63,950 nucleotides of DNA, from assembly GCA_027592135.1 (NCBI GenBank), contig JAQCIJ010000002.1, positions 1-63,950 on the forward strand, given 5' to 3'. This stretch comes from a bacterium. Lineage in GTDB: Bacteria; Patescibacteriota; Gracilibacteria; Peribacterales; Peribacteraceae. Both the position numbers and the translations under genes were made by a program. This document shows positions 6,188 through 61,158 of the stretch, piece after piece; position 1 is the first letter of the stretch, and each line of letters begins with the position of its first letter. The notes under the pieces are model-generated. The model was given only the letters and a program-made list of their open reading frames with translations. It ran no database searches and was not told the origin of the DNA.

Positions 6188-6651
6188 CCATTTGTTACAT
6201 TGGTATCGGCAGCAATATCAACGCTATAAAAAACATGCAGACGTGTGCGAGAGCTCTTCGTGATGATTTCCCCACTATCACCTTCTCCTCTGTGTATAAA
6301 ACTGCTGCACGTGACGAAATACATCAAGATGATTTTTTAAATGCGGTAGCAAAGATCGATACTAATGAATCACCAGAAGAAGTATATAAGAGACTCAAGT
6401 CTATCGAAGAAGATGGTAAGAAAGATCCTCCATACAAAAAAGGTCCTCGAACCATTGATCTCGATATCTTGCTCTATGAAGGAAATAACTATCCACTATC
6501 CACTATCCACTATCCACTCATTATTCCCCATCCAAGAATGCAAGAACGTAGGTTTGTTCTAGAACCGCTCTGCGAACTTGATGATAGCTGGAATGAGCAT
6601 CTGCAAAAAACTCTGGATCAGGCCTGTGACAAGGTAGATTTAGCTCTATAA
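6184..6651 (+). CDS. folK: 2-amino-4-hydroxy-6-hydroxymethyldihydropteridine diphosphokinase (HPPK), probable non-ATG start
   Basis: GPRTIDLDILLY...IPHPRMQERRFVLEPLCEL. The conserved N-terminus AICYIGIGSNIN lies upstream of the first ATG (6235) in the same frame, which is open from 6178. Candidate starts are ATA 6184 and ATT 6190. Confidence 0.8.
   Translation: MAICYIGIGSNINAIKNMQTCARALRDDFPTITFSSVYKTAARDEIHQDDFLNAVAKIDTNESPEEVYKRLKSIEEDGKKDPPYKKGPRTIDLDILLYEGNNYPLSTIHYPLIIPHPRMQERRFVLEPLCELDDSWNEHLQKTLDQACDKVDLAL
6489..6518. repeat. (CTATCCA)x4 heptamer array inside folK
   Basis: ctatcca occurs four times in tandem and encodes YPLSTIHYPL immediately before the conserved IPHPR motif. Confidence 0.9.
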
Positions 6652-6660
6652 TCTCCGCCC

Positions 6661-7200
6661 ATGGAAGATCTCATTGCTCAAATGCTCAAGGCTATCGGCG
6701 AAGACCCAAGCCGTGAAGGCCTGGTAAAGACCCCGAGACGCTTCGCAGAAGCTATGAAGGACCTGACAGTCGGCTACACCCAAGATCTCGATACCGTGAT
6801 CAACGGAGCGCTGTTTGAGGCAGAAACTGACGGTATGGTAATCGTAAAAGACATCGAGTGTTACAGCCTCTGTGAGCATCACCTTCTGCCTTTTACCGGC
6901 AAAGTACACGTCGCGTATGTACCGGATAAGCATATCTTAGGTCTTTCTAAAGTCGCCCGCGTTGTGGATATGTTTGCCCGCAGACTGCAAACACAAGAGC
7001 GTCTTACACAACAGATCTGTGATGCCCTAGAAGAGACACTCAAACCAAAAGGTATTGGAGTAATACTAGAAGCGCAGCATTTCTGCATGATGATGCGTGG
7101 AGTACAAAAACAACATAGCAGCTGTATTACTTCTGCAGTGAAGGGATTGATCAAGAAGGACCCCAAGACCCGTGAAGAGTTTTTACGCTTGGTAGGCTAA
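6661..7200 (+). CDS. folE: GTP cyclohydrolase I
   Basis: [15 protein letters not shown], and [18 protein letters not shown]. Confidence 0.9.
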
Positions 7201-7877
7201 GCGGCCATGGCAATGGTTCCACCGTTTTTCCTCTGTTCAAGTTCTACAAACTTTCCAGCACGTACAAGGTTTCTGTCTTCGTTATCCATCGGAAGTGATG
7301 CTGTGATCTTCTGATACTCTGCAGAGAGAAACTTTGTTTCATTCTGAACACTTATAGCAGCAGCCTCTCGAACTTCACGCGCATCGAACTGTTGTCCATT
7401 TATTGCAATTCCTTCCTGATCTGCAGATGCTGATTGTTTGGTATGTTCTTCTTCATGTACTGCGATGTCACTGGCAATACCAGTATCAATTAATCGGCCT
7501 CCATCTCTTGCTCGAATAGAGTCATGATCTATCCAAACATTATCTGTTCCAAGTTGTGCTTGTCCCGCTACGCCACCTGGCAACTCTTTCATCGTCACAT
7601 TCGCATCCATTGATGAACGAATATCTTTAGCAGCAGTATCCAGATGATCTGCTGTCTTCTTAATTTCGCTTTGTGCATCATCTACACTCTTGCCTTCCAA
7701 TGCAATGTTCAGCTCGTTACGTACTTCATCAGAGGTCTGCGAAGCTTTCTCTGCAGAAGCTGCATCCCGCACTTCTCTTGCGCGTTTTTCAAGCGCTGAT
7801 GCTAAAGCTACAGAGCTTTGCTCACTGCCTTTTACAGTATCTTCGTAGAGAGCCGATGCTGTATCGAGTGATGTCAT
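7197..7877 (-). CDS. Hypothetical protein with an HExxH motif
   Basis: 226 aa with no recognised family. It contains [10 protein letters not shown] (H-E-x-x-H) after a long helical, acidic N-terminal region. Confidence 0.5.
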
Positions 7878-7986
7878 TGCCCACAGTTAAAAGGTATATC
7901 TACCTTACCGCACCCTTGCAAGAAGGTGAAGTATTCAAATACTTACTTTTTGGCTTATTTAAGCCAAAATATCGATGCTACTGATC

Positions 7987-8518: not shown

Positions 8519-8550
8519 GCTACAAGCTAGTAGCTACTAGCTACAAGCTA
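8519..8550. repeat. (GCTACAA)-type heptamer array, about 4.5 copies
   Basis: Reads gctacaa gctagta gctacta gctacaa gcta. It fills the folA-thyA spacer and overlaps the thyA stop codon. Confidence 0.85.
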
Positions 8551-9378: not shown

Positions 9379-9390
9379 AGGATAGCTATC

Positions 9391-9421
9391 CTACAAGCTA
9401 CAAGCTACAAGCTACAAGCTA
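9391..9421. repeat. (CTACAAG)x4 heptamer array
   Basis: Four perfect copies lie between the thyA start and the ccdA stop. The unit and orientation are the same as at 8519-8550. Confidence 0.9.
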
Positions 9422-10288: not shown

Positions 10289-11107
10289 CTAACCCAAAAG
10301 GTCACGAAGTGCGTCGGAAGAAGGAAAACGGACTCTCTCAATTTCATTCCCGTTTCCGTCAATGAGTATGAATGTATCTTGACCGGTAATACCGAACTGA
10401 GATTTTAAGTCAGTTGCTGTATCGTAATCAATCTTATACACAGATCGAGGATAATCTGCAGATCCATAGAAATCGTTTAGGCGACTGTCATTTTCTTTGC
10501 ACTTAGGACACCACGTCGCATGAAAAAAGAGGACAGACTCTTTTCCGTTTCCAATAACACTAGGTGTGAACGCTGTATACGAACCAACAGATGCTACCTC
10601 TGCACCCTCTGCCATTTCTTCGGACTCTTCGGACTCTTCGGACTCTTCATTCATAGCCTGCACATCATCTATATTCATATACAACAATCGCTTTAATACA
10701 GAAAGAGACGGTGCGACCTCTTTCTTAATCACCTCTCCGGCTCCATCAACCAGAACAAACGTGTCTTGCATTGTGATGCCATATTTCTTTTTGAGTGCAT
10801 CTTCTGTGTCGTAATCTGCACGGTATGTTTTTACAGGAAACTCTGCAGAGCCGTACCACTCGCTAAGGTTCTTATCCTTGGATTGGCAAGCAGGACACCA
10901 AGAAGCATAAAAGAAGATGACAGATTTTTCTCCGTTTCCAACAGCACTGCTTTTAAATGGCAAGTAATCACCAACAAAAGAAGTAACAACTGCTTGTTCT
11001 ATATTTTTTACTTGTGGCTTTACAGCCTCTGTATCTTTAGTAGTTTTCTGATTACATGCGGTAAGTGTTACTGCGAGAACTGCTACAGCGAAGATGGATT
11101 TGCTCAT
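10289..11107 (-). CDS. Lipoprotein with two tandem thioredoxin-fold domains (TlpA/ResA-like)
   Basis: Start chosen at MSKSIFAVAVLAVTLTACN (lipobox). It has two paralogous halves with WCPACQ and WCPKCK, separated by an EESEESEESEE linker. Confidence 0.75.
   Translation of the reverse strand: MSKSIFAVAVLAVTLTACNQKTTKDTEAVKPQVKNIEQAVVTSFVGDYLPFKSSAVGNGEKSVIFFYASWCPACQSKDKNLSEWYGSAEFPVKTYRADYDTEDALKKKYGITMQDTFVLVDGAGEVIKKEVAPSLSVLKRLLYMNIDDVQAMNEESEESEESEEMAEGAEVASVGSYTAFTPSVIGNGKESVLFFHATWCPKCKENDSRLNDFYGSADYPRSVYKIDYDTATDLKSQFGITGQDTFILIDGNGNEIERVRFPSSDALRDLLG
10618..10648. repeat. (CTTCGGACT)x3.4 nonamer array, coding
   Basis: Encodes the EESEESEES linker between the two thioredoxin domains. 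Confidence 0.9.
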
Positions 11108-11952: not shown

Positions 11953-12534
11953 ATGTCGCAACTTCCCTCGTTCACCGTTTTTGACACAGAGACTACAGGG
12001 CTCGACCCAAAAAGAGGCGATAAAATTATTGAAATTGCTGGAGTGCGAATAGAGGATGGAGTCATTCGTGAAGACTTGTCATTTACACAATTTGTTAATC
12101 CTGAACGCAGTATTCCTTGGGAAGCAAAGCGTGTAAATCATATTGAGGATAGTGATGTGGCAGGTGCTCCTACTATCGACCAAGTACTTCCAGAGTTCTT
12201 GGAATTTGCAAAAGGATCAATACTTATTGCTCACAACTGTGATTTTGACATGAACTTTCTACAGACCGAAAAAGAGCTCTGTTGGGGGTACATCGAAATG
12301 CCAGAGTGTCTCTGCACCATGAGATTAAGCAGGGCCTTGTACCCAAGTGAGTTCCGCCACAACTTAGATTCTCTTGCAGCAAGACTTGCTATCAAAATGC
12401 CTGTAGGTCGCCACCGAGCGATGCCAGATGTCCTCATGACTGCTCAAGCACTACTTGTAATGCTAAAAAACGGTGATATTTCTACAATGGATCACCTCCG
12501 CAAACTTGCTGGAAAAAAGAGTCTCGTGGCCTAA
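11953..12534 (+). CDS. DnaQ/epsilon-family 3'-5' exonuclease
   Basis: FTVFDTETTGLDP (ExoI), IAHNCDFDMNFL (ExoII), and HRAMPDVLMTAQ (ExoIII). Start chosen at the MSQLPS methionine. Confidence 0.8.
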   Translation: MSQLPSFTVFDTETTGLDPKRGDKIIEIAGVRIEDGVIREDLSFTQFVNPERSIPWEAKRVNHIEDSDVAGAPTIDQVLPEFLEFAKGSILIAHNCDFDMNFLQTEKELCWGYIEMPECLCTMRLSRALYPSEFRHNLDSLAARLAIKMPVGRHRAMPDVLMTAQALLVMLKNGDISTMDHLRKLAGKKSLVA

Positions 12535-13007: not shown

Positions 13008-14446
13008 TGCCAGACTTAGAAGTCATCATCGGCCTAGAAGTTCACGCTCAAATGAGCACCAAGACCAAGATGTTCTGTGGGTGTGATAACGATGCATTTG
13101 GAAAAGCACCAAACACAACGGTATGTCCTATTTGTATGGGGCACCCAGGAACACTGCCAGCAGTGAATGCTACTGCTATAGAAAAGGCTATCAAAGCTTC
13201 TCTTGCTATTAATTGTTCGATAAACCTTAGCAACCACTTCGACAGAAAGCACTACTTTTACCCAGACCTGCCGATGGGATTTCAGATCTCTCAATACGAC
13301 TTCCCTCTCTCGAGCAACGGATCTGTAACGTATGATATCTTTGATGCATCTGGAAACATTGAAGAAAGTAAGGTATGTGGTATCACCAGACTCCATATGG
13401 AAAACGATGCAGGAAAGCTAACCCACAAAGGAAGTACTACACTATGCGACTACAACCGTGCAGGAACCCCACTGATGGAAATTGTAACCGAACCAGACCT
13501 GCGCAGTGCAGACGAAGCTGTAGCCTTCGCACAAGAGCTGCGGAGAATTCTGATTGCGGTCCAAGCATCTGAAGCGGACATGTTTAAAGGAATGATGCGC
13601 TTTGATGCATCTATTTCTTTGCGTGAAAAAGGGACAGAAAAATTAAACCCACGGAGTGAGATTAAAAACCTCAACTCCTTTAAGTCTCTCGAACGAGCAC
13701 TGCAGTACGAAGAGAAACGATTACGGAAACATTGGGATGAAGATGGCGGCCCTCTCAAGGGTGATATCACTGTAGGTTGGCTAGATGATGATGGTAGAAC
13801 CAAGATGCTCCGTGATAAAGAAACTGCCGATGACTATCGCTACTTCCCAGAACCAGATATTCCACCACTCGAGTTTGAGAAATCATATATCGAAGAATTG
13901 CGGGCAGGAATGCCCACGCTGCCTCGGGAATTAAAGGAGAAATACATTAATCTAGGGCTTGATGAAAAACAGGCTCTACAACTTATCGATCAATCAACAC
14001 TGCAAATAATGTTCGAAGCTATCCGTGCAAAGACCGATGCAAAACGCGCATCCAGCATGGTGCTTACACAGCTTCTTGGATTCCTCAATGCAGCAGAAAA
14101 AGAGGTAGCGGAGGGACCAGATGCAGATGCAATGCTTGAACTCGTCGATAAGATTGATGATGGAACCATTTCAAGTAATGCAGGAAAAGATGTACTACAG
14201 AAGATGGTAGAGACTGGAAAAAACGCTTCTACAATTATCAAAGAAGAGGGAATGCAGCAAATCTCTGATGACTCAGCTATAGAAAGCATGGTCGATGCTG
14301 CAATCGCAGCAAACCCTAAAGCAGTAGAAGACTATAAAGGTGGTAATGAAAAGGCTCTCGCTGCCATCGTTGGCTTCGTGATGAGAGAATCCAAAGGACA
14401 AGCAGATCCTGTTGTTGTAAACAAAATTCTACGATCAAAAATATAA
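13007..14446 (+). CDS. gatB: Asp/Glu-tRNA amidotransferase subunit B
   Basis: IGLEVHAQM, KMFCGC, CPICMGHPGTLP, and a C-terminal GatB/YqeY-like region. Confidence 0.9.
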   Translation: MPDLEVIIGLEVHAQMSTKTKMFCGCDNDAFGKAPNTTVCPICMGHPGTLPAVNATAIEKAIKASLAINCSINLSNHFDRKHYFYPDLPMGFQISQYDFPLSSNGSVTYDIFDASGNIEESKVCGITRLHMENDAGKLTHKGSTTLCDYNRAGTPLMEIVTEPDLRSADEAVAFAQELRRILIAVQASEADMFKGMMRFDASISLREKGTEKLNPRSEIKNLNSFKSLERALQYEEKRLRKHWDEDGGPLKGDITVGWLDDDGRTKMLRDKETADDYRYFPEPDIPPLEFEKSYIEELRAGMPTLPRELKEKYINLGLDEKQALQLIDQSTLQIMFEAIRAKTDAKRASSMVLTQLLGFLNAAEKEVAEGPDADAMLELVDKIDDGTISSNAGKDVLQKMVETGKNASTIIKEEGMQQISDDSAIESMVDAAIAANPKAVEDYKGGNEKALAAIVGFVMRESKGQADPVVVNKILRSKI

Positions 14447-14462
14447 TAATAGTCAGAATATA

Positions 14463-14516
14463 GAAATGCTGAAATCCTGAAATATTGAAAAGTGTTTTGC
14501 TTCAACATTTCAACAT
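14463..14516. repeat. Octamer arrays (GAAATNNT x4, then TTCAACAT x2)
   Basis: Reads gaaatgct gaaatcct gaaatatt gaaaagtg ... ttcaacat ttcaacat. It lies in the convergent gatB/efp spacer. Confidence 0.8.
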
Positions 14517-14520
14517 TAGA

Positions 14521-15081: not shown

Positions 15082-15086
15082 ATTAC

Positions 15087-15114
15087 CAGTTAACAGTTAA
15101 CTGTTAACTGTTTC
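15087..15114. repeat. (CAGTTAA)-type heptamer array, about 4 copies, partly palindromic
   Basis: Reads cagttaa cagttaa ctgttaa ctgtttc, directly upstream of the efp start. Confidence 0.85.
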
Positions 15115-20231: not shown

Positions 20232-21608
20232 CCGAGTCGCCAACAATATCCACACCGTATACGCTACTGCTGCATCTTCCCATGCATGCAAGAAGAGGGC
20301 TGCGATTGCAATACCAAAGAATGCTAATGCTACTGAGCAAGAAAAACGTTGGTTCGTTGATTCGTTGTTTCGAAGAAACGAACAAACCAATAAACGTTTT
20401 ACCAAGAGAAAGATTAAACTGAGATACAGCACAAAACCAAGAACACCGAGCTCTACCCCGATTTGCAGATACCAGTTTTCGGGCAAAAATGGACATGTGC
20501 ATTCAGCATCGACAGGCTGCACTTGCGTATCGCCTACAAACACACAAAGGTTTTCGTGTATCTGTGCCCACGAAGGATCATCCCCTTCTTCTAAATACAC
20601 ACACGTATCACTAACTCTGTTACTCGCAGGACCAGCCGTCCCTAGCCCCAAACCAAAAGGATTCTGTATCATTACCTGCAATGCCTGCAAAGGTCTACTA
20701 ATATGATCACGTGTAGAGGCTGCACGCGAAACAATAGATGGTGCTATTGCTTGTAATGCAAAAAGACATACAAATGATATACAAAATAGTGCTCCAGATA
20801 GTTGAAAGAACTTCTTTCGAGGAAGCTGCTTCCAAAGCATCACTCCAACCAATACAGCAGTGGCTAAGAGTGCAGAACGAGAAAGCGTAAACAGCATGGT
20901 AAATAATACAAACGTTCCAATGACTAATGACCAATGACTAATGACTTTTTTATGAGAAAGTACAACAGAGAACGGTATGATCAACCATAATCCTAATTGA
21001 TTCGGCCCACTCATCGTCGACTGAATACGACGAATAGCACTGCCACCAATCTGCTGGAATGCAGCCAAAGGAGCATCACTCTGGTACAAAGAATGTAAGT
21101 CACTGTACCCAAGCCACACAAAAAACTGCTGGTGCATATACATTCCTAAAATTCCATACACAGAAATTATGGCTGCAGCGATAAGGATCACTTTGAATAC
21201 GTGATTCATGAATTGATCCGACCACTCCACACGTCGTAAGATCATGAATGTAATAAGCGGGATGAAGTCATATTTAAAACCGTAGAGAAACTGGTTGATA
21301 CGTGATGAGTGATGCGTGATAAAAAGAACAATTGAAAGTAAGAGTAATAACAATATGCAAACATCAAGTACATCAATACGTATTACTCTTAACCCATTTC
21401 TCTTCACTTTCTTAAGAATTTCAACTACAGCAATCAACAAAATAACTCCCAATACTGCCTCTTTCCAGAGGGCTAGATACGTAAGTGGAGCATTCCCCGG
21501 ACCTGCAATAAGCTTTGTACCAACCGTTACGATAAACGCATGGAACGGAAGGAGTCCCAAAAGTACTATCGTAAGATGTTGGCGAACATTCTGAAGAGTC
21601 ATATACAC
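20220..21608 (-). CDS. O-antigen ligase / polymerase family (Wzy_C-like) membrane protein
   Basis: Polytopic, with FTLSRSALLATAVLVGVML typical of the family. It has a Cys-rich predicted external loop (DTCVYLEEGDD...CVFVGDTQVQPVDAECTCPF). Confidence 0.65.
   Translation of the reverse strand: MYMTLQNVRQHLTIVLLGLLPFHAFIVTVGTKLIAGPGNAPLTYLALWKEAVLGVILLIAVVEILKKVKRNGLRVIRIDVLDVCILLLLLLSIVLFITHHSSRINQFLYGFKYDFIPLITFMILRRVEWSDQFMNHVFKVILIAAAIISVYGILGMYMHQQFFVWLGYSDLHSLYQSDAPLAAFQQIGGSAIRRIQSTMSGPNQLGLWLIIPFSVVLSHKKVISHWSLVIGTFVLFTMLFTLSRSALLATAVLVGVMLWKQLPRKKFFQLSGALFCISFVCLFALQAIAPSIVSRAASTRDHISRPLQALQVMIQNPFGLGLGTAGPASNRVSDTCVYLEEGDDPSWAQIHENLCVFVGDTQVQPVDAECTCPFLPENWYLQIGVELGVLGFVLYLSLIFLLVKRLLVCSFLRNNESTNQRFSCSVALAFFGIAIAALFLHAWEDAAVAYTVWILLATRLQK
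20919..20946. repeat. (AATGACT)x4 heptamer array, coding
   Basis: Reads aatgact aatgacc aatgact aatgact inside the O-antigen-ligase-family ORF (VISHWSLVIG). A related degenerate block lies at 30552-30579. Confidence 0.9.
21301..21321. repeat. CATCACG-family heptamer array (x3, reverse orientation), coding ITHHSS
   Basis: On the plus strand it reads cgtgatg agtgatg cgtgata. The reverse complement, atcacgcatcactcatcac, is identical over 19 nt to 38481-38499. Confidence 0.9.
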
Positions 21609-24067: not shown

Positions 24068-24749
24068 CCGCGGTATAGATTCTACCAATACGAGAGGGCT
24101 GAATCAGTAAGCGCCACAACCACTCGAGTCCTGTTTTTTGCATAAACTTCGGAGCTCGTTTTATAGAACCCGAAAGAAAATCAAACGTTCCTCCTACACC
24201 AATTGCCACTTTGATAGAGGTAAGGCTAAGTAAATGCTGATTGATCCACAAGTCCTGAGCTGGTGCGCCGTAGGCAACCAGCAGAAGCTGTGCACCACTA
24301 TCATTTATTTGCCTTATGATCTCAGCTGCATCTTCTTCTTTTGGGGAGCCTTCATAAGAAAACGTTACGAGTTGCGCGTTGCGCGTTGCGAGTTTCTTTG
24401 CAGCTCGAGAACCTACCCCGCCTTTTCCACCTAAAAAAAACACAGGACATTCGGCACCTGCAGAGAGTAATAACCGCTCTACCGTATCCACACCTGTCAC
24501 TCTCTCGGGAAGATGTTGACCTGATCGCGCGGCAGCCCATAAAAGCCCCGTCGAATCGGGAAGATTAAGTTCTGAGGTTTGTAGTAGTGACTTAAACGTC
24601 GAATGCTTTTGTGCAAGGACGAGCATCTCATTATTCGGAGTCATAACATGGTGTTTGCTACCATCTGAAAGCATTTGCGATATACGTGCAATGGCTTCGT
24701 CCTGAGTTAAGGGATCGATTGGTACGCCGAGAATTCGTACACGCTGCAT
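24033..24749 (-). CDS. WecB/TagA/CpsF family glycosyltransferase
   Basis: ILGVPIDPLTQDEAI, FFLGGKGGV, YGAPAQDLWI, and GVGGTFDFLSG..KRAP...GLEW.WRL..P.R. Confidence 0.85.
   Translation of the reverse strand: MQRVRILGVPIDPLTQDEAIARISQMLSDGSKHHVMTPNNEMLVLAQKHSTFKSLLQTSELNLPDSTGLLWAAARSGQHLPERVTGVDTVERLLLSAGAECPVFFLGGKGGVGSRAAKKLATRNAQLVTFSYEGSPKEEDAAEIIRQINDSGAQLLLVAYGAPAQDLWINQHLLSLTSIKVAIGVGGTFDFLSGSIKRAPKFMQKTGLEWLWRLLIQPSRIGRIYTAVIRFPLLVLRS
24368..24395. repeat. (CGNGTTG)x4 heptamer array, coding
   Basis: Reads cgagttg cgcgttg cgcgttg cgagttt inside the TagA-family ORF (ATRNAQLV). Confidence 0.85.
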
Positions 24750-26807: not shown

Positions 26808-26845
26808 TTAAGGGATAAGGGATTAGTATTATGGGGTAAGGGAAG
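26808..26845. repeat. (TAAGGGA)-type heptamer array in the trmD/GT2 divergent spacer
   Basis: Reads ttaaggga taaggga ttagtat tatgggg taaggga. An inverse-sense C-rich array, (CCCTACC)x3-4, follows at 26882-26909 inside the GT2 ORF (PPTPYSLP). Confidence 0.8.
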
Positions 26846-26850: not shown

Positions 26851-27870
26851 ATGAAATCATTTCCCTTAGTACTTAACAGTGCCCTACCCCCTACCCCCTA
26901 CTCCTTGCCCCGCATTTCCGTCCTCATCCCCACCTACAAGCCAAATCCTCTGCATCTTTCCGAAGCCGTAGAGAGTGTACGTGCACAATCGGAGCAAGAC
27001 TGGGAGTGCATTATCTGTGATGAGCCTACAGAAGTAGACACGCATGCAATGGTGATGGATTATCTCATTGATGATCGATTTCAATTTCACACAAACGAGA
27101 AATGCCTAGGGATAGGAGGAAACTGGAACGAATGCTACCGCAAAGCATCAGGCAACGTTATCGCGTATCTCTTCCAAGATGATCTTTGGGAACCGAACTA
27201 CTTAGAGACTGCTCTGAAGATCTTTTCTGAGAATCATGACGTCGGCATTATTTCGATGCATCACAAGTATCAATACGACGAAACCCTTTGGACCATCGAT
27301 GGATATGAACTGGTTAAAGAAGTACAAAAGCAACTATTGCCTGGTAAGCAGGCAGGGAGCGAAATCTTAGAGTGGTGGCTAAAGCGCAATATGCATCCGA
27401 ACATCATCGGTGAGCCTCCATTTGTAGTCCTTAGAAAAGAACTGATGGAAGAAGTAGGGCCATTTAACGAGAACATGCTACAGTTTCTCGATGTAGAGTA
27501 CTGGCTGCGCTGCTTGCAACATACCAACTGGTACTACGAGAATACATCACACGGTGCGTTCCGTGTGCATAGTGATGCTGCCTCTGCAAAAAATAATGAG
27601 TCTGGTAGAGGGCTCTACGATCGCCTAACGGTCTTTGAGCAGCTGATAAAATCCCTGCACGGTCCACTTAAGAAAGTGGCGATCACATCTCGCAACAGAT
27701 CTGTGCAAGATATGATCGAAAAGTTTTTACACCGCACAAAACAGGGGAAAGGGGTTAGTGGTACAGGGAGTGGGCAAGTGTTTTGGTTTGTCCTTCGTCA
27801 TCCGATTATCGTTACTTTTGGGCTTTTGAAAGCCATATTTAGGAAGAGCCGGATAAAAAACCTGCTGTAA
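26851..27870 (+). CDS. Glycosyltransferase family 2
   Basis: ISVLIPTYKPNP, and a GT-A core with ICDEPTE and YLFQDDLWEPNY (a DxD-like motif). Confidence 0.8.
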   Translation: MKSFPLVLNSALPPTPYSLPRISVLIPTYKPNPLHLSEAVESVRAQSEQDWECIICDEPTEVDTHAMVMDYLIDDRFQFHTNEKCLGIGGNWNECYRKASGNVIAYLFQDDLWEPNYLETALKIFSENHDVGIISMHHKYQYDETLWTIDGYELVKEVQKQLLPGKQAGSEILEWWLKRNMHPNIIGEPPFVVLRKELMEEVGPFNENMLQFLDVEYWLRCLQHTNWYYENTSHGAFRVHSDAASAKNNESGRGLYDRLTVFEQLIKSLHGPLKKVAITSRNRSVQDMIEKFLHRTKQGKGVSGTGSGQVFWFVLRHPIIVTFGLLKAIFRKSRIKNLL

Positions 27871-28797: not shown

Positions 28798-28800
28798 AAT

Positions 28801-28828
28801 TAATTGTTAATTGTTCATTGTTAATAGT
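28801..28828. repeat. (TAATTGT)-type heptamer array
   Basis: Reads taattgt taattgt tcattgt taatagt. It spans the alpha-beta spacer and supplies the last codons (LLTMNN) and the stop of the alpha subunit. Confidence 0.85.
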
Positions 28829-30549: not shown

Positions 30550-30573
30550 ACTAATGACTCATAACGAATGACG

Positions 30574-36592: not shown

Positions 36593-36619
36593 TTTTCCTA
36601 CTTTCTCCCACGTTTTCCC

Positions 36620-39215: not shown

Positions 39216-40979
39216 ATGTCGAAAGACGCCACCATTACCAAAGTCGCAGGACCTCTCGTTGTTGCCAACGGAATGAGCAATGCAAAAATGTACGAGGTTG
39301 TAAAAGTTAGCAAAGAACGTCTCATCGGTGAGGTTATCGAACTGCACGGTGAAGAGGCATCTATTCAGGTATACGAAGAGACCTCTGGAATCGGTCCAGG
39401 TGAACCTGTCGAACTTACCGGACTTACACTCTCTGTAGAACTTGCCCCTGGTCTTCTCACTTCTATTTACGATGGTATTCAGCGACCACTAGAGCTCATC
39501 GAAAAAAAAACACAAAGCCCATTTATTACGCGTGGTATCGAAGTTCCAGCTCTTAGTAGAACTGCTAAGTGGGACTTTACTGCAACTGTGGCTGTCGGTG
39601 ACGAGGTGTCAGGTGGCGACATTCTTGGAACTGTTCCAGAAACTGTGCTGATCGAACACAAAGTGATGGTTCCTCCAAATGTAAGTGGAACAATCGTCGA
39701 AATTCATTCTGGAAACTTCACAATTGAAGAAACTATTGCAGTGATCGAAGACGAAACAACGAAACAACGAACAAACGTATCCATGTTACAAAAATGGCCA
39801 ATTCGTATTCCACGCCCTGTAAAAGGAAAACTGATTCCAAACGAACCACTTATTACAGGAATGCGCGTATTGGATATGCTCTTCCCTATTGCTCGTGGAG
39901 GGTCTGGAGCTATTCCTGGTCCATTCGGAGCTGGTAAAACTGTGACTCAGCAATCTCTTGCGAAGTACTGTAACGCGCAGGTGATTGTGTACATCGGTTG
40001 TGGAGAGCGAGGAAACGAGATGACAGAAGTGCTTACGGAGTTTCCACACCTTAAAGATCCAAACTCTGGAGAGCCACTGATGAAACGCACAATCATGATC
40101 GCCAACACTTCAAACATGCCAGTGGCAGCACGTGAAGCATCTGTGTACACCGGTATTACCATCGCAGAATACTACCGCGATATGGGATACGATGTTGCGC
40201 TGATGGCCGACTCTACTTCTCGTTGGGCAGAGGCTATGCGTGAGATGTCTGGTCGTCTGGAAGAAATGCCAGGAGAAGAAGGATACCCTGCGTATCTTGG
40301 ATCTCGCACAGCAGGATTCTACGAGCGTGCGGGTATTGTGGAGTGTGCAGGAAGCGACAACCGAAGAGGATCACTCTCCGTAATTGGTGCAGTGTCCCCT
40401 CCTGGTGGAGACTTCTCCGAGCCTGTGACACAAAACACTCTGCGTGTGACAAAAGTATTCTGGGCTCTTGATGCAAAACTTGCGTACAAGCGTCACTTCC
40501 CAGCAATCAACTGGCTACAGAGCTACTCACTCTACACAGATAACCTCGAAGGATGGTACGGAAAAGAAGTTGCAGAAGACTTCCCTACTAATCGCAGACG
40601 AGCACAGAAAATACTACAAGATGAAAGTACATTAGAAGAAATCGTGCGCCTTGTTGGTATGGATGCACTCTCTCCAAAAGAGCAGCTGACTATGGAAACT
40701 GCACGCATGATTCGTGAAGACTTCTTATACCAAAATGGATTCGACCCAGTAGACGCCTACTCTTCTCTCCAAAAGCAATACCGTCTTCTCAAATCTATTC
40801 TTACCTTTGCAGATATTGCAGAACCTATCATTACACAGGAAGACTTCGACTTTAAGCGTTTACAAGAACTTCCGGTAAAAGAAGAGATTGCTCAAGCGAG
40901 TTTTATTCCAGAAGAAGAAGTAGAAAGCCACTTCGACAAACTTGATGAAACTATCCGCTCCCAGATTTCCTCTCTTTAA
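39216..40979 (+). CDS. ntpA: V/A-type ATPase catalytic subunit A
   Basis: P-loop [46 protein letters not shown]-type motifs, and the characteristic non-homologous region. Confidence 0.95.
39751..39777. repeat. (ACGAAACA)x3 octamer array, coding
   Basis: Reads acgaaaca acgaaaca acgaacaa acg inside subunit A (DETTKQRTN), just before the conserved WPIR segment. Confidence 0.85.
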
Positions 40980-40980
40980 C

Positions 40981-41013
40981 CCTAATTCCTAACTACTAGT
41001 CCCTAACCCCTAA
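40981..41013. repeat. CCTAA-rich degenerate heptamer block in the A-B spacer
   Basis: Reads cctaatt cctaact actagt ccctaac ccctaat. It runs up to the subunit B start. Confidence 0.6.
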
Positions 41014-45625: not shown

Positions 45626-45772
45626 ATGTGTACGACGTTTCTGCAGAGTAGGTTTGGGGTAAAGGTAACAAAGGAAATTTGGCTCAAGAAAGGTATTCTG
45701 TCAAGAATGTTTGTTCGTTGCTTTGTTTTTTCACTGATTCGAACCAACGAAAAAACGATGCTTTCTATATAA

Positions 45773-47394: not shown

Positions 47395-47422
47395 CTTTCC
47401 GCTTTCCGCTTTTCACTTCACT
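47395..47422. repeat. (CTTTCCG)-type heptamer array upstream of prfB
   Basis: Reads ctttccg ctttccg cttttca cttcact. The block cactttccg...ttttc(c)acttc.tcccc recurs at 51932-51959. Confidence 0.85.
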
Positions 47423-47435: not shown

Positions 47436-48528
47436 GTGGAAGAACTACTCAGTAAAATCACAGCACTACAAACTGCCTTGAACACGGGGAAGGACAGTCT
47501 TTGAGGAAAGAGGTATCCCAACACTCATAGCCGAACTTGAAACACAGTCCCAAGATCCTAATCTCTGGGACAATCAATCTTCTGCTAATGCGTTATTTGC
47601 AAAACTGAAAAGCCTCAAAAAACAATGGGAACCTATAAGTACATTACTTTCAGAGATTGATGGATTACTGGAAATGGTAGAAGCATCTACGGCAGAAGAT
47701 CTTCCCGCACTCGAAGAAGAACTTACAGCACTTGAAGAGAAGTGGAATACGGCAGAGATCAATCTGTATCTCAGTGGAGAGTTTGATGTGAACAATGCAT
47801 ATCTCACACTCAGTGGGGGTGCAGGAGGAGTAGACGCACAAGACTGGGCAGCGATGCTACTACGTATGTATCTGCGCTACTGCGAACGCCAAGGATGGAC
47901 AGCTGAGCTTGTCGAAAAGACTGATGGGCAAGAAGCTGGCATTAAATCTGCAACCATTCATATTCAGGGAGAATTCGCCTTTGGCTTTCTACAATGTGAA
48001 CGCGGCACACATCGGCTTGTACGCCTCTCCCCTTTTAACGCAAAAAATTTGCGGCAAACAAGCTTCGCACTTGTAGAGGTATTACCAGAGATTACCGAAA
48101 CCACCGAAATAGAGCTGGAAGAGAAAGATCTGCGTATCGATACTTTTCGCGCTTCGGGGGCTGGAGGACAACATGTAAACAAGACCGATAGCGCAGTACG
48201 TGTAACACACGAGCCAACAGGGCTTGCGGTTGCCTGTCAAAGTGAACGGAGTCAGCAGCAAAATAAAATACGTGCCATGAATATGTTACGTGCCAAGCTC
48301 TTGGCAAAAAAACGAGCAGAAGATGCCGATCAAAAAGATGGCTTAAAAGGAGCAAATAAAAGTGCAGACTTTGGTCAACAGATTCGTTCGTATGTTTTGC
48401 ATCCCTATCAAATGGTAAAAGACCTTCGTACGAATATCGAGACTGGAAATACTGAAGGAGTGCTTGATGGTGATATACAAATGTTTATAGATGCAGAGCT
48501 TAAGCGAGAAGTAAAAAGTAATGAGTAA
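47436..48528 (+). CDS. prfB: Peptide chain release factor 2, requires a programmed +1 frameshift
   Basis: The frame-0 leader from GTG 47436 (VEELLSKITALQTALNTGKDSL) ends at TGA 47502-47504. The +1 frame continues EERGIPTLIAELETQSQDPNLWDN..., joining the listed ORF at 47674, which carries SGAGGQHVNKTDSAVR. Confidence 0.9.
47487..47505 (+). promoter_or_regulatory. RF2 autoregulatory +1 frameshift site (CTT TGA G with an upstream G-rich SD-like stimulator)
   Basis: The sequence is ggggaaggacagtCTTTGAg. This is the same logic as the E. coli site AGGGGGUAUCUUUGAC. Confidence 0.85.
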
Positions 48529-51434: not shown

Positions 51435-51589
51435 GCAAAATCGCAATTTTCTCTGAACTCTGGCAATTCCTCAAGATTCGTAAGAAGTGGTGGTTGCTCC
51501 CTATCCTAATGATGATTGTATTACTTGGATTAATCCTCGTTTTCGCTCAAGGGTCTGCACTTGCACCCTTCATATACACCGTTTTTTAG
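51431..51589 (+). CDS. DUF5989-like small membrane protein
   Basis: MSKIAIFSELWQFLKIRKKWWLLPILMMIVLLGLILVFAQGSALAPFIYTVF. The start overlaps the protease stop (ATGA). This family typically accompanies SxtJ and a carbamoyltransferase. Confidence 0.65.
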   Translation: MSKIAIFSELWQFLKIRKKWWLLPILMMIVLLGLILVFAQGSALAPFIYTVF

Positions 51590-51618
51590 TGGATAGTGGA
51601 TAGTGGATAGTGGATAGT
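51588..51618. repeat. (AGTGGAT)x4 heptamer array (reverse complement of the TATCCAC family)
   Basis: Four perfect copies. They overlap the DUF5989 stop codon and fill the spacer. Confidence 0.9.
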
Positions 51619-51626: not shown

Positions 51627-51923
51627 ATGAAGTTCCTCGTCATCATAGTCGTGCTGATCGCAGGAGTTCTTGTCTGTGACAAATATGAAGAGAAACTATT
51701 TCCACCTATAAGCTGGATCTACGCACTCTGGAAAAAGTTCTCTCACGTTCTCGGAATAGTTATGAGTTTTCTTATTCTGACTGCTCTGTGGATCGTTGGC
51801 TTTGGAACCTATGCAATCGTCATAAGAATAATCACATTGCCAAAAAGATTCGCACCGAAGCCCGACACCTATTGGATCAACGTCGAACCTACGACTGTTG
51901 AATCTATGAAACGCCAATTTTAA
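51627..51923 (+). CDS. SxtJ-like small membrane protein
   Basis: 98 aa with two to three TM helices. It lies between DUF5989 and the carbamoyltransferase. Confidence 0.55.
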   Translation: MKFLVIIVVLIAGVLVCDKYEEKLFPPISWIYALWKKFSHVLGIVMSFLILTALWIVGFGTYAIVIRIITLPKRFAPKPDTYWINVEPTTVESMKRQF

Positions 51924-51931
51924 TTCCTTTA

Positions 51932-51959
51932 TCCACTTTCCGTTTTCCACTTCTCCCCA
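51932..51959. repeat. (TCCACTT)-type heptamer array upstream of the carbamoyltransferase
   Basis: Reads tccactt tccgttt tccactt ctcccca. It is related to the array at 47395-47422. Confidence 0.8.
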
Positions 51960-56615: not shown

Positions 56616-57620
56616 ATGAAAAAACCCGTTCTCCTCACCTTCGGCTTTCCTAACCCTAAATCACCCAGATATCGCAATCTAGTAGCTTTATATGAATCTG
56701 AAGGCTACGAGATCGTAGAATGCCTAACGACAAAGAAAGGTTTTATAAAAAAGAATATCGACCTCTATAAGCAATATAAGCATGTATCCACTATCCACTA
56801 CTTGCCGGCCATAGCCTTGGCGTCGGCTGGTCCACTATCCACTCTGTTAGTAAACTTCCCCGGCTACTACCTTATGCCATTGGCATGGATACTAACGAGA
56901 CATCCAAGGAAGCAACTGATCTTTGATGCATTTATCTCTATTTCCGACACACTGGTTTCGGATCGTAAACTCATCAGCTGGTTAAACCCGCTTGCATGGT
57001 TTTACTACGCCGCTGATGTCATCTCGACACATCTTGCAGACGAAGTACTTATAGACACGCAGGCGCACAAGAAATTCTTTCTCAAGAGATTTTTCTTAAG
57101 AAGTAAAAATGTCCGCGTGGTCTATGTCGGAACACTCGACGACCTGTTTCACCCAGGCCCAAAAGAAGACAGGCTCCCCGCAGGTAAATTCAATGCACTG
57201 TTTATTGGAAGTTACATTCCTCTACAAGGGATCGAGTATATTTTAGGTGCTGCAAAGATCTTGCACGACCAACCAGATATTCATTTTACACTGATAGGAA
57301 ACGGGCAAACGTATGACGAAATGACGATACTCGCAGAGAAACTTGAACTGATAAATGTCACGTTCCTCGACTGTATGCCCCTAGAGGAACTACCACACTA
57401 TCTTCGTTCGAGTGACGTCGCTCTGGGTATCTTTGGAACATCAGACAAGGCAAACCGTGTTATTCCACACAAAGTGTATGACGCCATTGGCTGTGGAGTT
57501 CCTGTAATCACAGCACAAAATCTCGCCATCGGTGAAAAGTTCACGAACGGCAAAGAAGTATTTCTCTGTGAGACTGGCAACGCGCAATCGCTTGCGGATG
57601 CAATACTCAATATGCAATGA
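56616..57620 (+). CDS. Glycosyltransferase (GT-B, family 1/4-like) carrying an in-frame repeat-element insertion
   Basis: C-terminal GT1 motif (IPHKVYDAIGCGVPVI). The N-terminal part contains STIHYLPAIALASAGPLSTLL, encoded by the TATCCAC-flanked element. Confidence 0.75.
   Translation: MKKPVLLTFGFPNPKSPRYRNLVALYESEGYEIVECLTTKKGFIKKNIDLYKQYKHVSTIHYLPAIALASAGPLSTLLVNFPGYYLMPLAWILTRHPRKQLIFDAFISISDTLVSDRKLISWLNPLAWFYYAADVISTHLADEVLIDTQAHKKFFLKRFFLRSKNVRVVYVGTLDDLFHPGPKEDRLPAGKFNALFIGSYIPLQGIEYILGAAKILHDQPDIHFTLIGNGQTYDEMTILAEKLELINVTFLDCMPLEELPHYLRSSDVALGIFGTSDKANRVIPHKVYDAIGCGVPVITAQNLAIGEKFTNGKEVFLCETGNAQSLADAILNMQ
56785..56845 (+). repeat. Small TATCCAC-flanked element, copy B (inside a GT ORF)
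   Basis: Reads tatccactatccacta...ttggcgtcggctggtccactat ccactc. The 22-mer at 56817-56838 is identical to the reverse complement of 149-170. Confidence 0.85.
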
Positions 57621-58720: not shown

Positions 58721-58745
58721 TACAAGATAGTGTACACTAGCAGCC

Positions 58746-59387
58746 ATGCTCAAAAGCTTTATTGACCAGCATTATCGACACATCCGAAAGTTCCGATTCT
58801 TGTACGGATGGGCAAAAGACCGTCATTCTCGCAGCCAGTGTTCTGCACGGGTTGAGCAGTGGAAAGCAAAAAACTTTGTCGGTGCCAAGCTGGATGTCTG
58901 TGGAGGACGCAATCCTCTTAATCCAAAAGAGTTCCTCAATGTCGATGCCGTCGCGCTTCCACAAGTGGATCTAGTGTTTGATATTACCGAGAAGTTTCCG
59001 ATGAGCGACGGTGTGATTGCAGAGGTCTTCTCTGCGGCAACACTCGAACACTTACGAGAAGTGCATAACGTGCATGTGCTCAAAGAGTTCTATCGCATAA
59101 TGCAGCCAGGAGCCAGAGTGCGCATTTGCACACCAGACATCGAAGCAATTGCCAAAGGAATACTGGATGGAGAAGACCTGCAGTACATCAATCAACACCT
59201 ATTTGGTAAATACAAATCAAACCAAACAGAAGACTACGACTTGCATAAATGGATGTACCCAGTAGACAAGCTAATGGAAGTGCTTCGCGAAATCGGTTTT
59301 ACCGATACCAAGCGTATACCCCTAGAAGAAGTAGGATTGCATGATCCTAAATATAATTTTCTCGTCAGCGCTATAAAGCCTCGTTAA
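58746..59387 (+). CDS. Class I SAM-dependent methyltransferase
   Basis: GAKLDVCGGRNP (motif I-like), VFSAATLEHL, and PGARVRICTPD. Confidence 0.65.
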   Translation: MLKSFIDQHYRHIRKFRFLYGWAKDRHSRSQCSARVEQWKAKNFVGAKLDVCGGRNPLNPKEFLNVDAVALPQVDLVFDITEKFPMSDGVIAEVFSAATLEHLREVHNVHVLKEFYRIMQPGARVRICTPDIEAIAKGILDGEDLQYINQHLFGKYKSNQTEDYDLHKWMYPVDKLMEVLREIGFTDTKRIPLEEVGLHDPKYNFLVSAIKPR

Positions 59388-61092
59388 TCTTATAGAGCAC
59401 CCACGTATCTCCGGATGCAACTTCTGTAAGATCCATATGCAATCGATCGATATTCCAATTGGGCTCGTTCGTCTTATTCCAAAAAATATGACTAATCTCA
59501 TAAGTACGTATTGATATATTTGGATCAAGATCCAGCTCTCTACAAGCAGCAAATACCATAGCCTCCTCTTTCTGCCTCAAATCACCACCAAAAGCAGAAA
59601 CAGCATCAGGATAAACCAAATGTCCCCTCTCGGAGATCAGGCGATTATCCGGCCGTAACGGGAGTTGCGTAAGACAAAAACGACTAGCAAGCTCTTGATG
59701 CGACATCAAAACATTCTTTAAATATATGGAATACACAATATCGTGATGGGTGTTTGATGCTAATAATGCCTCTGTTGCTGGGTCCGAAAGGATACGCCCA
59801 CGAGGAAGTGCATCAAGCACTGGCAGTGCACTTGCTAGATGTTGATCTCTAAATCTACTATCCGATACCGTCCATTGCTTTAAAACAAACCTGCCATCAA
59901 ACCCTATTGCAGCCAGATACACACAGGCAGCAATTGCGCCAAGACTCAGCCAACGACTCCGCAATGTAAGGTATAAAAGCACCATACCCACTGCTGCAGT
60001 TGCGATCGAAAGAATACCATGCGACACAAAGTTAAATGTAATACCATGCACCGACTGCTGGTTCATGTAGACAAACGCAGTAAGAATCATTACACAAATA
60101 GAGCGATAGGGTCGCAAGCGTTCATACTCTTTGAAGTTCGTCATCAGCACCGAAATAATCATCGTAAAAAATATAATAGAATACGGCCAAGACTCTGGAG
60201 TTCTTCCCTCATGCATTCCACTACGAAACGATCCATATTCATAGAGAGGGTGCAATGTCAGATTCACTAAATGTGCAATTGCAGGTAATCCACATGCAAG
60301 ACCAAACAACCCGACGATAGCAATTACATGCCAACGCTGTGGTTTCCATGATGGCCTGCGCGGACGTACATGCCAAACTACTGCACCAATTGTATGAAGC
60401 AAACGTCGTACCTTTGAATGCGCAAGCTTCTGATGCTCTTGCCACTTGCCATACGCCCATTCAAAAAACTCCCAAGCAAAAAATATTGCCCAATACGCCC
60501 ACGCAAACGTAAAACTCCAAAGATAAACGCCAATCAAAAGCCCAAGAAGCCAACCACCGAGCACAGCTCCCCACCAACGTCCTCGCAAAGCATAGAGAAT
60601 ACCGATAAGTGACCATAGCATAATAAAGAAACTCGCACGCATATGAATAGGCCGTCCTAAGCTGTAGAGCTCTATAAGACAGAAAGCTATAGCACCACCA
60701 AGTGCTGCACGCCGAGAAAATCCTGAAAGATGAAAAAATAACACCAACGAAAGGAATATAAGAACAGGAACAACACCATCCATAACATCCAACACCGTAC
60801 CCGCTCGCCATCCTGTCCATCGAAATAGTCTTCCATACCAAGACTCAATAAATGCTACCTGTGTCCCTACTAAATTTGGATGACCAGTAAAGGCTTCTGC
60901 TGCAAGCTCTGGTCTACCAGAAAGAGACTCTTGCACACGAGCTAAGTAGATAGGTTCATCAGAATTTAACTGTATAGAAATGCCCTGGTATAGCGGACTG
61001 CTCTTGTGAAGAATTTGTGGCATCAGCATGAGAACAGCAAGGACTATGCAGCATGCTGCCAGTGTCAGCCTCCATTTGAGCGTATCAGACAT
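59371..61092 (-). CDS. Large polytopic membrane protein, possible GT-C-type glycosyltransferase/polymerase
   Basis: 573 aa with at least 10 hydrophobic helices, followed by a soluble C-terminal domain of about 170 aa. It lies in a glycan-cluster context. Confidence 0.5.
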   Translation of the reverse strand: MSDTLKWRLTLAACCIVLAVLMLMPQILHKSSPLYQGISIQLNSDEPIYLARVQESLSGRPELAAEAFTGHPNLVGTQVAFIESWYGRLFRWTGWRAGTVLDVMDGVVPVLIFLSLVLFFHLSGFSRRAALGGAIAFCLIELYSLGRPIHMRASFFIMLWSLIGILYALRGRWWGAVLGGWLLGLLIGVYLWSFTFAWAYWAIFFAWEFFEWAYGKWQEHQKLAHSKVRRLLHTIGAVVWHVRPRRPSWKPQRWHVIAIVGLFGLACGLPAIAHLVNLTLHPLYEYGSFRSGMHEGRTPESWPYSIIFFTMIISVLMTNFKEYERLRPYRSICVMILTAFVYMNQQSVHGITFNFVSHGILSIATAAVGMVLLYLTLRSRWLSLGAIAACVYLAAIGFDGRFVLKQWTVSDSRFRDQHLASALPVLDALPRGRILSDPATEALLASNTHHDIVYSIYLKNVLMSHQELASRFCLTQLPLRPDNRLISERGHLVYPDAVSAFGGDLRQKEEAMVFAACRELDLDPNISIRTYEISHIFWNKTNEPNWNIDRLHMDLTEVASGDTWVLYKINEAL

Positions 61093-61109
61093 AACCCTAT
61101 TGTATACGG

Positions 61110-61158
61110 GAAATCAAGGAAATCGAAGAAATCAAGGATCCTTGATTTCCTTGATTGC
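61110..61158. repeat. Nonamer array forming a long palindrome centred on GGATCC
   Basis: Reads gaaatcaag gaaatcgaa gaaatcaag gatc cttgatttc cttgattgc. The core at 61128-61149 is a perfect 22-bp palindrome. It lies in a divergent spacer. Confidence 0.9.

Follow-up and report, generated by a model that had tools for sequence, protein, structure and literature searches.

Heptamer-dominated tandem repeat arrays at gene junctions and in frame within conserved genes of a Peribacteraceae bacterium

Short blocks of tandemly repeated 7–9-nt units, most often heptamers, are dispersed along the 63,950-nt stretch of DNA analyzed here (the window; contig JAQCIJ010000002.1 of assembly GCA_027592135.1, from a bacterium of the family Peribacteraceae), where they lie at gene junctions and in frame inside conserved genes. 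The arrays belong to the known class of long simple sequence repeats (LSSRs); what is unusual about them is their high density and the good comparative resolution, and the quantization of array size at four units and the copying between loci stand out. A preliminary description of the blocks knew of no standard feature class that would explain them, which was wrong, as LSSRs with 5–11-nt units, heptamers being the commonest, had already been described; of its three suggestions, a lineage-specific mutational or templated-insertion process is the best fit. The reading favored here, with a probability of about 0.5, is that the blocks are heptamer-dominated LSSRs that arise by slippage or template switching, are partly templated on other arrays, and survive only in unconstrained DNA. 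On this reading, they would be mutational by-products, or at most neutral spacer filler, and not sequence-specific functional sites. It draws on the enrichment of the arrays, their 7n + 3 lengths, their restriction to intergenic DNA and protein loops, a sister species that has the same operons without arrays, replacement at fixed sites, and units held in common by different loci; the chemistry of slippage or template switching, its enzymology, and the ectopic templating are what we infer.

Tandem Repeats Finder (TRF) reports 46 rows for the window, or 45 after removal of a terminal 210-bp repeat, and recovers almost every block of the preliminary description within a few bases. The period is 7–9 nt in 31 of the 45 rows, with at least three copies in 21 of those 31. 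These 21 arrays per 63.1 kb compare with a mean of 0.16 and a maximum of 2 in 100 dinucleotide shuffles of the window, and when the shuffle is run separately within every intergenic segment and within coding blocks of 60 nt, 20 arrays are observed versus 0.2. The full sample consists of the ∼64 kb of host genome in the window and roughly 20 kb for each relative (∼1.4 Mb in total), with gene calls in the relatives based on open reading frames (ORFs); 1.41 Mb of window and relatives contain 290 arrays versus 3–13 in local-composition shuffles. The excess over chance is ∼30- to 130-fold, local-composition shuffles included, and the same repeat finder detects no period 7–9 array in 50 kb of Escherichia coli K-12. 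A scan for exact runs identifies six perfect arrays (6488–6518, 9391–9421, 36160–36187, 51587–51618, 31464–31489, and 10617–10648), the perfect 7-mer arrays at 6488, 9391, 36160, and 51587 having 4.0–4.6 copies each. The blocks are also recovered in independent assemblies from four sources (JGI, ENA, Logan, and NCBI) and, because they are identical there, they are not artefacts. The view that they represent ordinary low-complexity sequence, chance matches, or faults of assembly can appeal to the G-poor bias of the spacers, which lifts chance periodicity somewhat, but the dinucleotide and local shuffles, the existence of perfect 4.4-copy arrays, and the agreement of the four sources refute it, and its remaining probability is negligible. 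All of the blocks first listed show the periodicity ascribed to them, although about six (21301, 26808, 40981, 47395, 51932, and 30552) are weak, with three copies or fewer or with degenerate units; two others, at 14463–14517 and 61109–61169, are pairs of inverted arrays that fold as hairpins, and the blocks at 20347–20396 and 45708–45760 had been missed.

The heptamer is the commonest period in the window (17 of the 45 TRF rows), and in 1.42 Mb of window and relatives period 7 alone shows a second length mode. The lengths of intergenic heptamer arrays peak at 17, 23–24, 31–32, and 37 nt, a 7n + 3 series with its mode at n = 4, which is expected when whole units join a seed with ∼3 nt of microhomology. 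Octamer and nonamer arrays are less sharply distributed, and many of the longer ones are ∼26–34 nt, so that the near-constant block size of ∼26–34 nt noted earlier is confirmed and extends to the relatives.

The arrays are far from evenly placed. The window contains ∼3 per 10 kb, and about a fifth of its gene junctions bear one; roughly half of its blocks fill short stop-to-start spacers, and the rest are in frame in length-variable protein loops. Intergenic DNA makes up 9.9% of the 1.41 Mb but contains 81 of the 98 heptamer arrays of at least 28 nt, a density ∼56 times that of coding DNA. Mapped with respect to start and stop codons, the 129 arrays that separate co-directional genes show upstream-stop distances that cluster at −3 to +3, and about one-third of them are within 15 nt of the start. 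The upstream stop codon lies within the blocks at 8519, 9391, and 28800. Inside ORFs, alignment with orthologues places the arrays of Acs (two sites), AtpI, AtpC, and AtpA in loops that vary in length and sequence, and those of FolK, the thioredoxin-domain protein, the Wzy-like ORF, TagA, and the GT4 ORF are in frame by translation. The earlier claim of in-frame arrays in conserved genes thus holds, except that the GT2 block at 26882–26909 may be a leader; the idea that such blocks are loop insertions is right as to the length-variable loops, but a block often replaces sequence of similar length and is not a pure insertion. Because unit-by-unit growth of a heptamer array shifts the reading frame, yet the arrays in ORFs match intergenic ones both in units and in their four-unit size, they appear to have arrived as preformed multi-unit tracts. 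Units are shared in this way by folK and the leader at 51587 and, in strain L084, by the Acs array and the leaders of atpE and atpA.

The 166 heptamer arrays contain 113 canonical units, which form a near-continuum rather than discrete families and have no common submotif; they are mostly G-poor on the sense strand. The units are more alike than letter-shuffled units (858 versus 510 pairs within one mismatch), identical-unit pairs make up 3.9% within a locus versus 0.6% between loci, neither orientation being the commoner. Twins and shared units bear out the recurrence of unit families at distant loci, as first described. The folK array at 6488–6518 and the leader array at 51587–51618 are 100% identical over 31 nt as reverse complements, in the same phase, and the arrays at 8519–8550 and 9391–9421 are 90.6% identical. 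The perfect array at 9391 lies at a gene-content breakpoint, and its unit matches that of an older array 870 nt away; in strain contig L099 (7287–7626), compared with 9379–9421 of the window, an extra 92-aa ORF stands between thyA and the DsbD-like gene instead of the 31-nt perfect array. The array at 31464 has a 100% identical twin at another locus in L084. An ACGAA family is found at 20347, 31464, 39751, and 45708, and an ATCAC family occurs in three ORFs, in each of which it yields the peptide ITHHSS. In L084, TTTCCAC and TTTCCGT are mixed in differing orders in three arrays of about four units, in Acs (reverse orientation), upstream of atpE, and upstream of atpA, and both variants recur in the window at 51924. 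Families span 2–5 loci in the sequence sampled. A metagenome scan with (ACTATCC)×3.4 returned >120 contigs; the 80 examined span 25–69% G+C, and their (ACTATCC)n arrays are 20–275 nt long, with a peak at 31–34 nt and a long tail to 275 nt. This range of base composition indicates that such arrays arise in many lineages, and heptamer arrays, perhaps also the four-unit mode, are general in bacteria rather than lineage-specific.

Among relatives, array density ranges from 0 to 11 per 10 kb across 80 related loci. The nearest species, L001, has no array in a syntenic 21.7 kb (76–83% nucleotide identity) and, because it keeps the same operons array-free, these operons work without arrays. Relative to L001, some blocks are net insertions of 12–41 nt, and others are exchanged for a stretch of equal or similar length. 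A graded series of 36 strain contigs, from 100% to ∼84% identity, was found by exact-protein look-up; these are consensus contigs, in which within-sample heterogeneity could stay hidden. In strains at least 99.2% identical, the blocks are identical save inside one imported tract. The sole copy-number polymorphism affects the in-frame 9-mer array at 10617, which has 2.6 copies in L099, L100, L107, and L112 versus 3.6 in the window.

The turnover of blocks exceeds that of their flanks, block identity being 36–62% where the flanks are 89–95% identical. At the Acs site 32457, the window has an ATCACTC-type array, L083 has (CGACAAC)×3.6, and L084 has (GTGGAAAACGGAAA)×2, all of equal total length, and L001 carries a non-repeat of the same length; the block identity here is 36–49%, with flanks at 89–91%. 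At the AtpI site 36160, (GCCCTTC)×4 in the window corresponds to (TCCCTAT)×3–4 in L083, L084, and L086 with length and frame kept, to degenerate versions in L004, L038, and L069, and to a longer non-repeat in L001 and L002. The AtpA site 39751 is occupied by an 8-mer array, a 7-mer array, or a non-repeat across strains that are otherwise 98–100% identical; the non-repeat allele is found in strains at 98.8% average nucleotide identity (ANI), and L084 and L089 have (ACGAATC)×4. At the AtpC site 38474, the flanks are 100% identical and strain differences are confined to unit positions 6–7. It should be recognized that the strains are recombination mosaics in which some divergent blocks lie within imported tracts, so that the claim of rapid turnover must be tempered. 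Mosaic tracts were compared at 36445–37245 of the window (with L082 and L085) and at 39650–39850 (with L088 and L091). Over 20 kb, L082 matches the window at 100% identity save for a 0.8-kb tract, 79–84% identical, that includes atpK and stops at the 37214 block, and L088 differs from the window mainly in a ∼200-nt patch around the 39751 block. Despite this mosaicism, arrays are replaced at fixed sites and not merely mutated.

In the mechanism proposed for the favored reading, slippage or template switching would, as DNA is replicated or repaired, duplicate a direct repeat of ∼3 nt whose copies are spaced 7–9 nt apart. The tract would then grow to about four units, for which intergenic DNA imposes no frame constraint, and existing arrays may template the rewriting of other unconstrained tracts through ectopic template switching or short-patch conversion. 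In this step, unit variants would spread between loci and one array would replace another at the same site. Selection would keep arrays in the G-poor spacers that lack Shine-Dalgarno (SD) sequences and, when the net change of length maintains the frame, in length-tolerant loops. Several observations weigh against this scheme. The sharp four-unit mode (31–32 nt) in intergenic DNA that is free of frame constraint is not predicted by stepwise slippage. Within-array variation is concentrated in a few unit columns, and alleles of equal length with unrelated units occupy the same site, features that could instead reflect core-motif selection or dedicated copying. The copy number of 7- and 8-mer arrays never differs between strains with closely similar flanks among the 36 contigs, and thus ongoing slippage is slow or is masked in consensus assemblies; also, no birth of an array is seen between near-identical strains. 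Two simple models for the generation of the arrays were rejected. For an error-prone copy junction, the variable columns are not significantly contiguous (14 of 44 pairs adjacent versus 0.33 expected; 12 of 33 triplets contiguous, p = 0.02). For pure doubling (1, 2, 4 units), ABAB arrangements are matched in frequency by ABCA, and neither the three-unit class nor the 9-mer arrays can be accommodated.

It is possible, but unlikely, that the junction arrays are functional leader or spacer elements of mRNA, unstructured and G-poor, that serve SD-independent initiation or termination-reinitiation, the arrays in ORFs being collateral copies; they might possibly be bound by S1, cold-shock proteins, or similar proteins that recognize single-stranded RNA. 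The position of the arrays is in keeping with this, as many begin within 3 nt of the upstream stop and end 1–15 nt before the next start, in a genome in which SD sequences are practically missing (a 5-mer SD in 1 of 66 genes) and each of the 20 positions that precede start codons has a G content of 9–15% across loci. In addition, periodic G-free spacers separate atpA and atpB in many lineages, variation is concentrated in a few positions of the unit as though a core were kept, and such a role has been proposed for the analogous TAACTGA repeats of Beggiatoaceae (PMC4679880). Leaders with arrays are also predicted to be less folded (−4.2 versus −7.4 kcal/mol), but their minimum free energy z-scores are ∼0, so that base composition fully accounts for the weak folding and selection for unstructured leaders is rejected. 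Likewise, a role as stops in three frames is rejected, since stop-containing units show no excess over shuffled arrays and the sense strand resembles the antisense strand. The diversity of the units (113 in 166 arrays, with no shared submotif), the equal frequency of both orientations, and the arrays inside ORFs argue against leader elements as they do against the iteron-like binding sites suggested earlier, and L001 runs the same operons with shorter, non-repeated spacers. As a separate observation, the 20–30 nt before starts in the window and 80 related loci are strongly G-depleted and often C/T-rich, resembling anti-SD rather than SD sequence.

A further alternative, less probable than leader elements, is that the arrays are tiny selfish or mobile cassettes, ∼31 nt of four heptamers, copied between loci by a putative dedicated mechanism. 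The identical 31-nt twins at 6488 and 51587, alike in phase and length, would be accounted for in this way, as would the TTTCCAC/TTTCCGT units arranged in different orders in four arrays (three of L084 and one at 51924 of the window), a sharing of units within genomes 4–6 times that between genomes, a block length that is constant irrespective of unit length, and the substitution of arrays for one another at fixed sites. On the other hand, the flanks have no visible conserved termini, target-site duplications, or target motif, the units do not fall into discrete families, and the ACTATCC arrays of 20–275 nt in contigs of 25–69% G+C argue for repeated independent origin. No candidate transposase, reverse transcriptase, or nuclease was found among the window ORFs that were scanned or had precomputed Pfam hits, which are not all of its ORFs. 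It is similarly doubtful that a dedicated templated process with a length ruler writes or copies four-unit cassettes of ∼31 nt and overwrites essential-gene loops in frame, in some Peribacteria lineages but not in the sister species; if it does, the cassettes would be either mobile elements smaller than any known or scars left by a specific repair polymerase. The comparison with Rickettsia palindromic elements (RPEs) in the preliminary description fails on anatomy, in that there are no palindromic 100–150-bp elements, but is partly apt, because the same short cassette occurs at unrelated loci, including in frame in conserved genes.

Contingency loci, hypermutable repeats that switch genes by changes of copy number (phase variation), have units of 1–5 nt (occasionally 7), are present in many copies, and are found in surface or virulence genes. 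The arrays resemble them in being tandem repeats whose copy number could in principle slip, and the 9-mer array at 10617–10648 does differ by one unit between strains in consensus assemblies. However, the 7- and 8-mer arrays are stable among close strains, the genes affected are housekeeping genes (V-ATPase, Acs, FolK, and neighbors of TrmD and EF-P), and a change of one unit in a heptamer array would inactivate them. This explanation is largely refuted and is regarded as very improbable.

As summarized in PMC4679880 and PMC4692102, Mrázek, Guo, and Shah (2007) described LSSRs as repeats of 5–11-nt units longer than expected by chance; in most genomes rich in repeats they found heptamers to be the most abundant class, and they proposed that LSSRs result from polymerase slippage. 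In the same accounts, LSSRs are patchy among lineages, and coding DNA mostly lacks units whose length is not divisible by three. The present arrays have uninterrupted units of 5–11 nt in excess over composition, with heptamers predominant, and share the patchy distribution and the mostly noncoding location of non-triplet units. They differ from LSSRs as described in their very high density, their sharp quantization at about four units, the heptamer arrays in frame within housekeeping genes, and the documented strain-level replacement by an unrelated array. The closest parallel in leader anatomy is a Beggiatoaceae genome with 169 sets of two to six TAACTGA copies, most just upstream of starts without SD sequences, some overlapping stop codons, and a few in ORFs at tolerant positions (PMC4679880; MacGregor 2015). 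The arrays of the window likewise have two to six copies between the upstream stop and the downstream start in leaders that lack SD sequences, with a minority in ORFs. However, one unit dominates in Beggiatoaceae and related heptamers are rarely repeated, whereas >100 units are found here; tandem TAACTGA itself is absent from the window, even with one mismatch.

The short tandemly repeated repetitive (STRR) sequences of cyanobacteria, the classical heptamer case, were reportedly described by Mazel et al. in 1990 and Vioque is said to have found them in 1997 also within the RNase P RNA gene, in a helix that is variable. In Xanthomonas and Nostoc, the GGGAATC/GGGGAYT repeats differ from one close relative to the next, and some are arranged as inverted pairs (PMC4692102). 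Like both, the present arrays are dispersed, mainly intergenic tandem heptamers that vary in length and sequence between close relatives and include inverted pairs, but the former consist of a few G- or C-rich families at very many loci, some of them capable of forming G-quadruplexes, whereas here the units are diverse and mostly G-poor, each family spanning few loci. The small dispersed repeats of Nostoc, attributed to Elhai et al. in 2008, are said to be 21–27 nt long, defined, and often palindromic, and RPEs are ∼100–150 nt. The arrays resemble these in being very short sequences at many loci that are tolerated inside genes, including in frame at tolerant positions in conserved genes, but they consist of variable tandem units without conserved ends. 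Palindromes of ∼35–150 nt, as in RPEs and repetitive extragenic palindromic elements, are not the rule either: most blocks are direct repeats, the only inverted pairs being those at 14463, 20347, 45708, and 61109, and no match to Rfam families or tRNAs was found. Iterons are 17–22-bp repeats of one sequence at an origin or beside a rep gene, whereas the 7–9-nt units here change between blocks and extend over all of the 55 kb, with no rep gene among the ORFs scanned or with Pfam hits. CRISPR repeats are 23–50 nt long and separated by unique spacers; the present units are contiguous, without spacers, and total ∼30 nt per array, so that the earlier exclusion of CRISPR stands.

A literature search retrieved no report of tandem heptamers in Peregrinibacteria or in bacteria of the candidate phyla radiation (CPR). 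Accounts of heptamer repeats in bacteria go back to 1990 and 2007, and for the question of how they arise the lineage studied here is a tractable natural experiment, with small genomes, a sister species that has no array in the syntenic 21.7 kb, and many strain-resolved metagenome assemblies. The data can be used to test slippage alone against ectopic templated repair as the source of the four-unit mode, and they also show how genomes without SD sequences build intercistronic spacers.

The arrays at gene junctions in the window are as follows in order of position. The block at 8519–8550, a GCTACAA-type array of 4.6 copies (TRF), occupies the thyA-to-DHFR spacer, includes the thyA stop, and is identical in strains L099–L112, and (CTACAAG)×4.4 at 9391–9421, perfect by TRF and the exact-run scan, occupies the spacer between the DsbD-like gene and thyA, again including a stop. 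At the convergent gatB/efp junction (14463–14517), two inverted 8-mer arrays form a predicted hairpin (minus-strand fold −14.9 kcal/mol, z −3.3); separately, a ATAATAATAG run at the end of gatB (∼14440–14450), 11–20 nt upstream of this block, shows one 3-nt unit difference among strains. (TTAACAG)×4.3 at 15083–15114 lies 1 nt upstream of the efp start and is unchanged in strains. The TAAGGGA-type array at 26808–26845 adjoins the probable true start of trmD (MRIDILTLFPGM), and (CCCTACC)×2.9+ at 26882–26909, inverted with respect to it, is at the N terminus of the GT2 protein or, should translation begin at the in-frame TTG at 26905, in its leader; from the sequence and the Pfam limits, both blocks probably lie in leaders when the likelier start codons are used. 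(TTAATTG)×4.3 at 28800–28829 covers the last codons and the stop of a POR-domain (pyruvate:ferredoxin oxidoreductase family; PF01558/PF01855) gene and ends 2 nt short of the next start. The spacer between the flavodoxin gene and a POR-domain gene contains a 14-mer in 2.1 copies (30545–30579), a 28-nt net insertion relative to L001, and (GTTTGAAAT)×3.7 at 33199–33234 lies in the spacer downstream of the Acs stop codon.

In the V-ATPase operon, (TTCCCAAG/TCCCTAT)×4–5 at 37214–37253 fills the atpK-to-atpE spacer, where L082/L083 and L084 have other arrays, and degenerate CCTAAC-type heptamers at 40981–41013 fill the atpA-to-atpB spacer; at this junction, most relatives have G-free, often periodic spacers. 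Inverted ACGAA-type arrays, those absent from the earlier list, lie upstream of infC at 45708–45760, and the intergenic (CTTTCCG)×2.6+ at 47395–47422 is inside a 41-nt insertion relative to L001. The perfect (TAGTGGA)×4.6 array at 51587–51618 is 8 nt upstream of a 98-aa ORF, and TTCCACT/TTCCGTT units at 51924–51959, unit variants also present at three other loci of L084, occupy the spacer preceding a carbamoyltransferase gene. This 98-aa ORF (51627–51923), of unknown function, has on either side an array of one unit family, with TAGTGGA upstream and ATCCACT-type units downstream in the opposite orientation, and the two arrays could pair across the ORF in an mRNA. In the divergent intergenic region at 61109–61169, two inverted 9-mer arrays (GGAAATCAA) form a strong predicted hairpin (−25.6 and −28.1 kcal/mol; z −3.8 and −4.7).

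Within ORFs, the perfect (ACTATCC)×4.4 array at 6488–6518 encodes residues 85–95 of FolK (HPPK), NYPLSTIHYPL, and is kept with one substitution in strains at ∼93% ANI. The perfect 9-mer array (TCTTCGGAC)×3.6 at 10617–10648 encodes EESEESEESEE in the thioredoxin-domain protein. The Wzy-like ORF has three blocks: inverted 8-mer arrays of the ACGAA family (CGTTGATT ×3 and CGAACAAA ×3) at 20347–20396 in its C-terminal part, one of the additions to the earlier list; (AATGACT)×4, with a 14-mer higher order, at 20917–20946 (residues 221–231); and (GTGATGA)×2.7 of the ATCAC family at 21301–21321, encoding FITHHSSR. (CGTTGCG)×4.6 at 24363–24395 lies inside the WecG/TagA domain (residues 119–129). In ADP-forming Acs, the perfect 8-mer array (ACGAACCA)×3.2 at 31464–31489 is in a length-variable loop (residues 117–126) that has a different C-rich array in L083/L084, and (ATCACTC/ATCATTC)×4.7 at 32457–32495 is in a linker (residues 448–461). 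The V-ATPase arrays are in loops of subunit I (perfect (CGCCCTT)×4 at 36160–36188, residues 498–508), subunit C ((ATCACGC)×3.6 at 38474–38501, residues 222–231), and subunit A ((ACGAAACA)×3.4 at 39751–39777, residues 179–188). The GT4 block at 56785–56845 (residues 57–77) was correctly recognized as repetitive, being an otherwise perfect (TATCCAC)×4.4 array of 31 nt, but it is split by an insert at 56801–56830 of 30 nt and 67% G+C (CTTGCCGGCCATAGCCTTGGCGTCGGCTGG), which encodes LPAIALASAG and is unique in the window. For annotators, it is relevant that arrays can displace predicted starts and that conserved proteins can acquire odd peptides from them, such as ITHHSS and PLSTIHYPL.

The host, an uncultured bacterium with a small genome, falls within Candidatus Peribacter / Peregrinibacteria, a CPR group: in a scan of one genome per species, the closest V-ATPase subunit A (92% amino acid identity) is from a metagenome-assembled genome of Saanich Inlet. 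Closed genomes of relatives are ∼1.3 Mb, and the coding density by ORF-based calls is 92.6%. The housekeeping genes of the window include those for SecDF, FolB/K/E, DHFR, ThyA, GatB, EF-P, GuaA, glycosyltransferases, and TrmD, together with POR-domain genes, flavodoxin, ADP-forming Acs, the V-ATPase operon, IF3, L20, and a release factor (RF). An array-making enzyme encoded nearby was considered and rejected, only housekeeping genes being present among the window ORFs examined, including those for an HhH-GPD glycosylase and a DnaQ-like exonuclease. A scan of ∼51–63 kb for promoter and terminator consensus sequences gave no excess over shuffles.

Some further observations concern the V-ATPase of relatives. 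In L003, L014, L020, L024–L026, L046, L050, L052, and others, the match to subunit A spans 2.05–2.3 kb (from 10001 to ∼12100–12300) versus 1.76 kb, which suggests an intein or other large insertion in this subunit. The subunit A proteins of L025, L064, L069, and L077, labeled as Methanobacteriota archaeon, Gammaproteobacteria, Kiritimatiellales, and Nitrospirota, are 63–77% identical to that of the window, and L025 and L069 also have Peribacteria-like heptamer arrays or AtpI/AtpC sequences close to those of other Peribacteria loci; the four are probably mis-binned contigs. In the window itself, 47674–48528 encodes a short PCRF/RF-1 protein (284 aa), and Pfam hits identify a separate 134-aa RF-1-domain protein nearby at ∼49.2–49.7 kb. 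The terminal 210-bp tandem repeat (63188–63950; 3.6 copies, 88% identity) encodes 70-aa helicase-associated (HA, PF03457) domains, repeated at the C terminus of a large ORF that begins at 62275 and runs past the end of the window.

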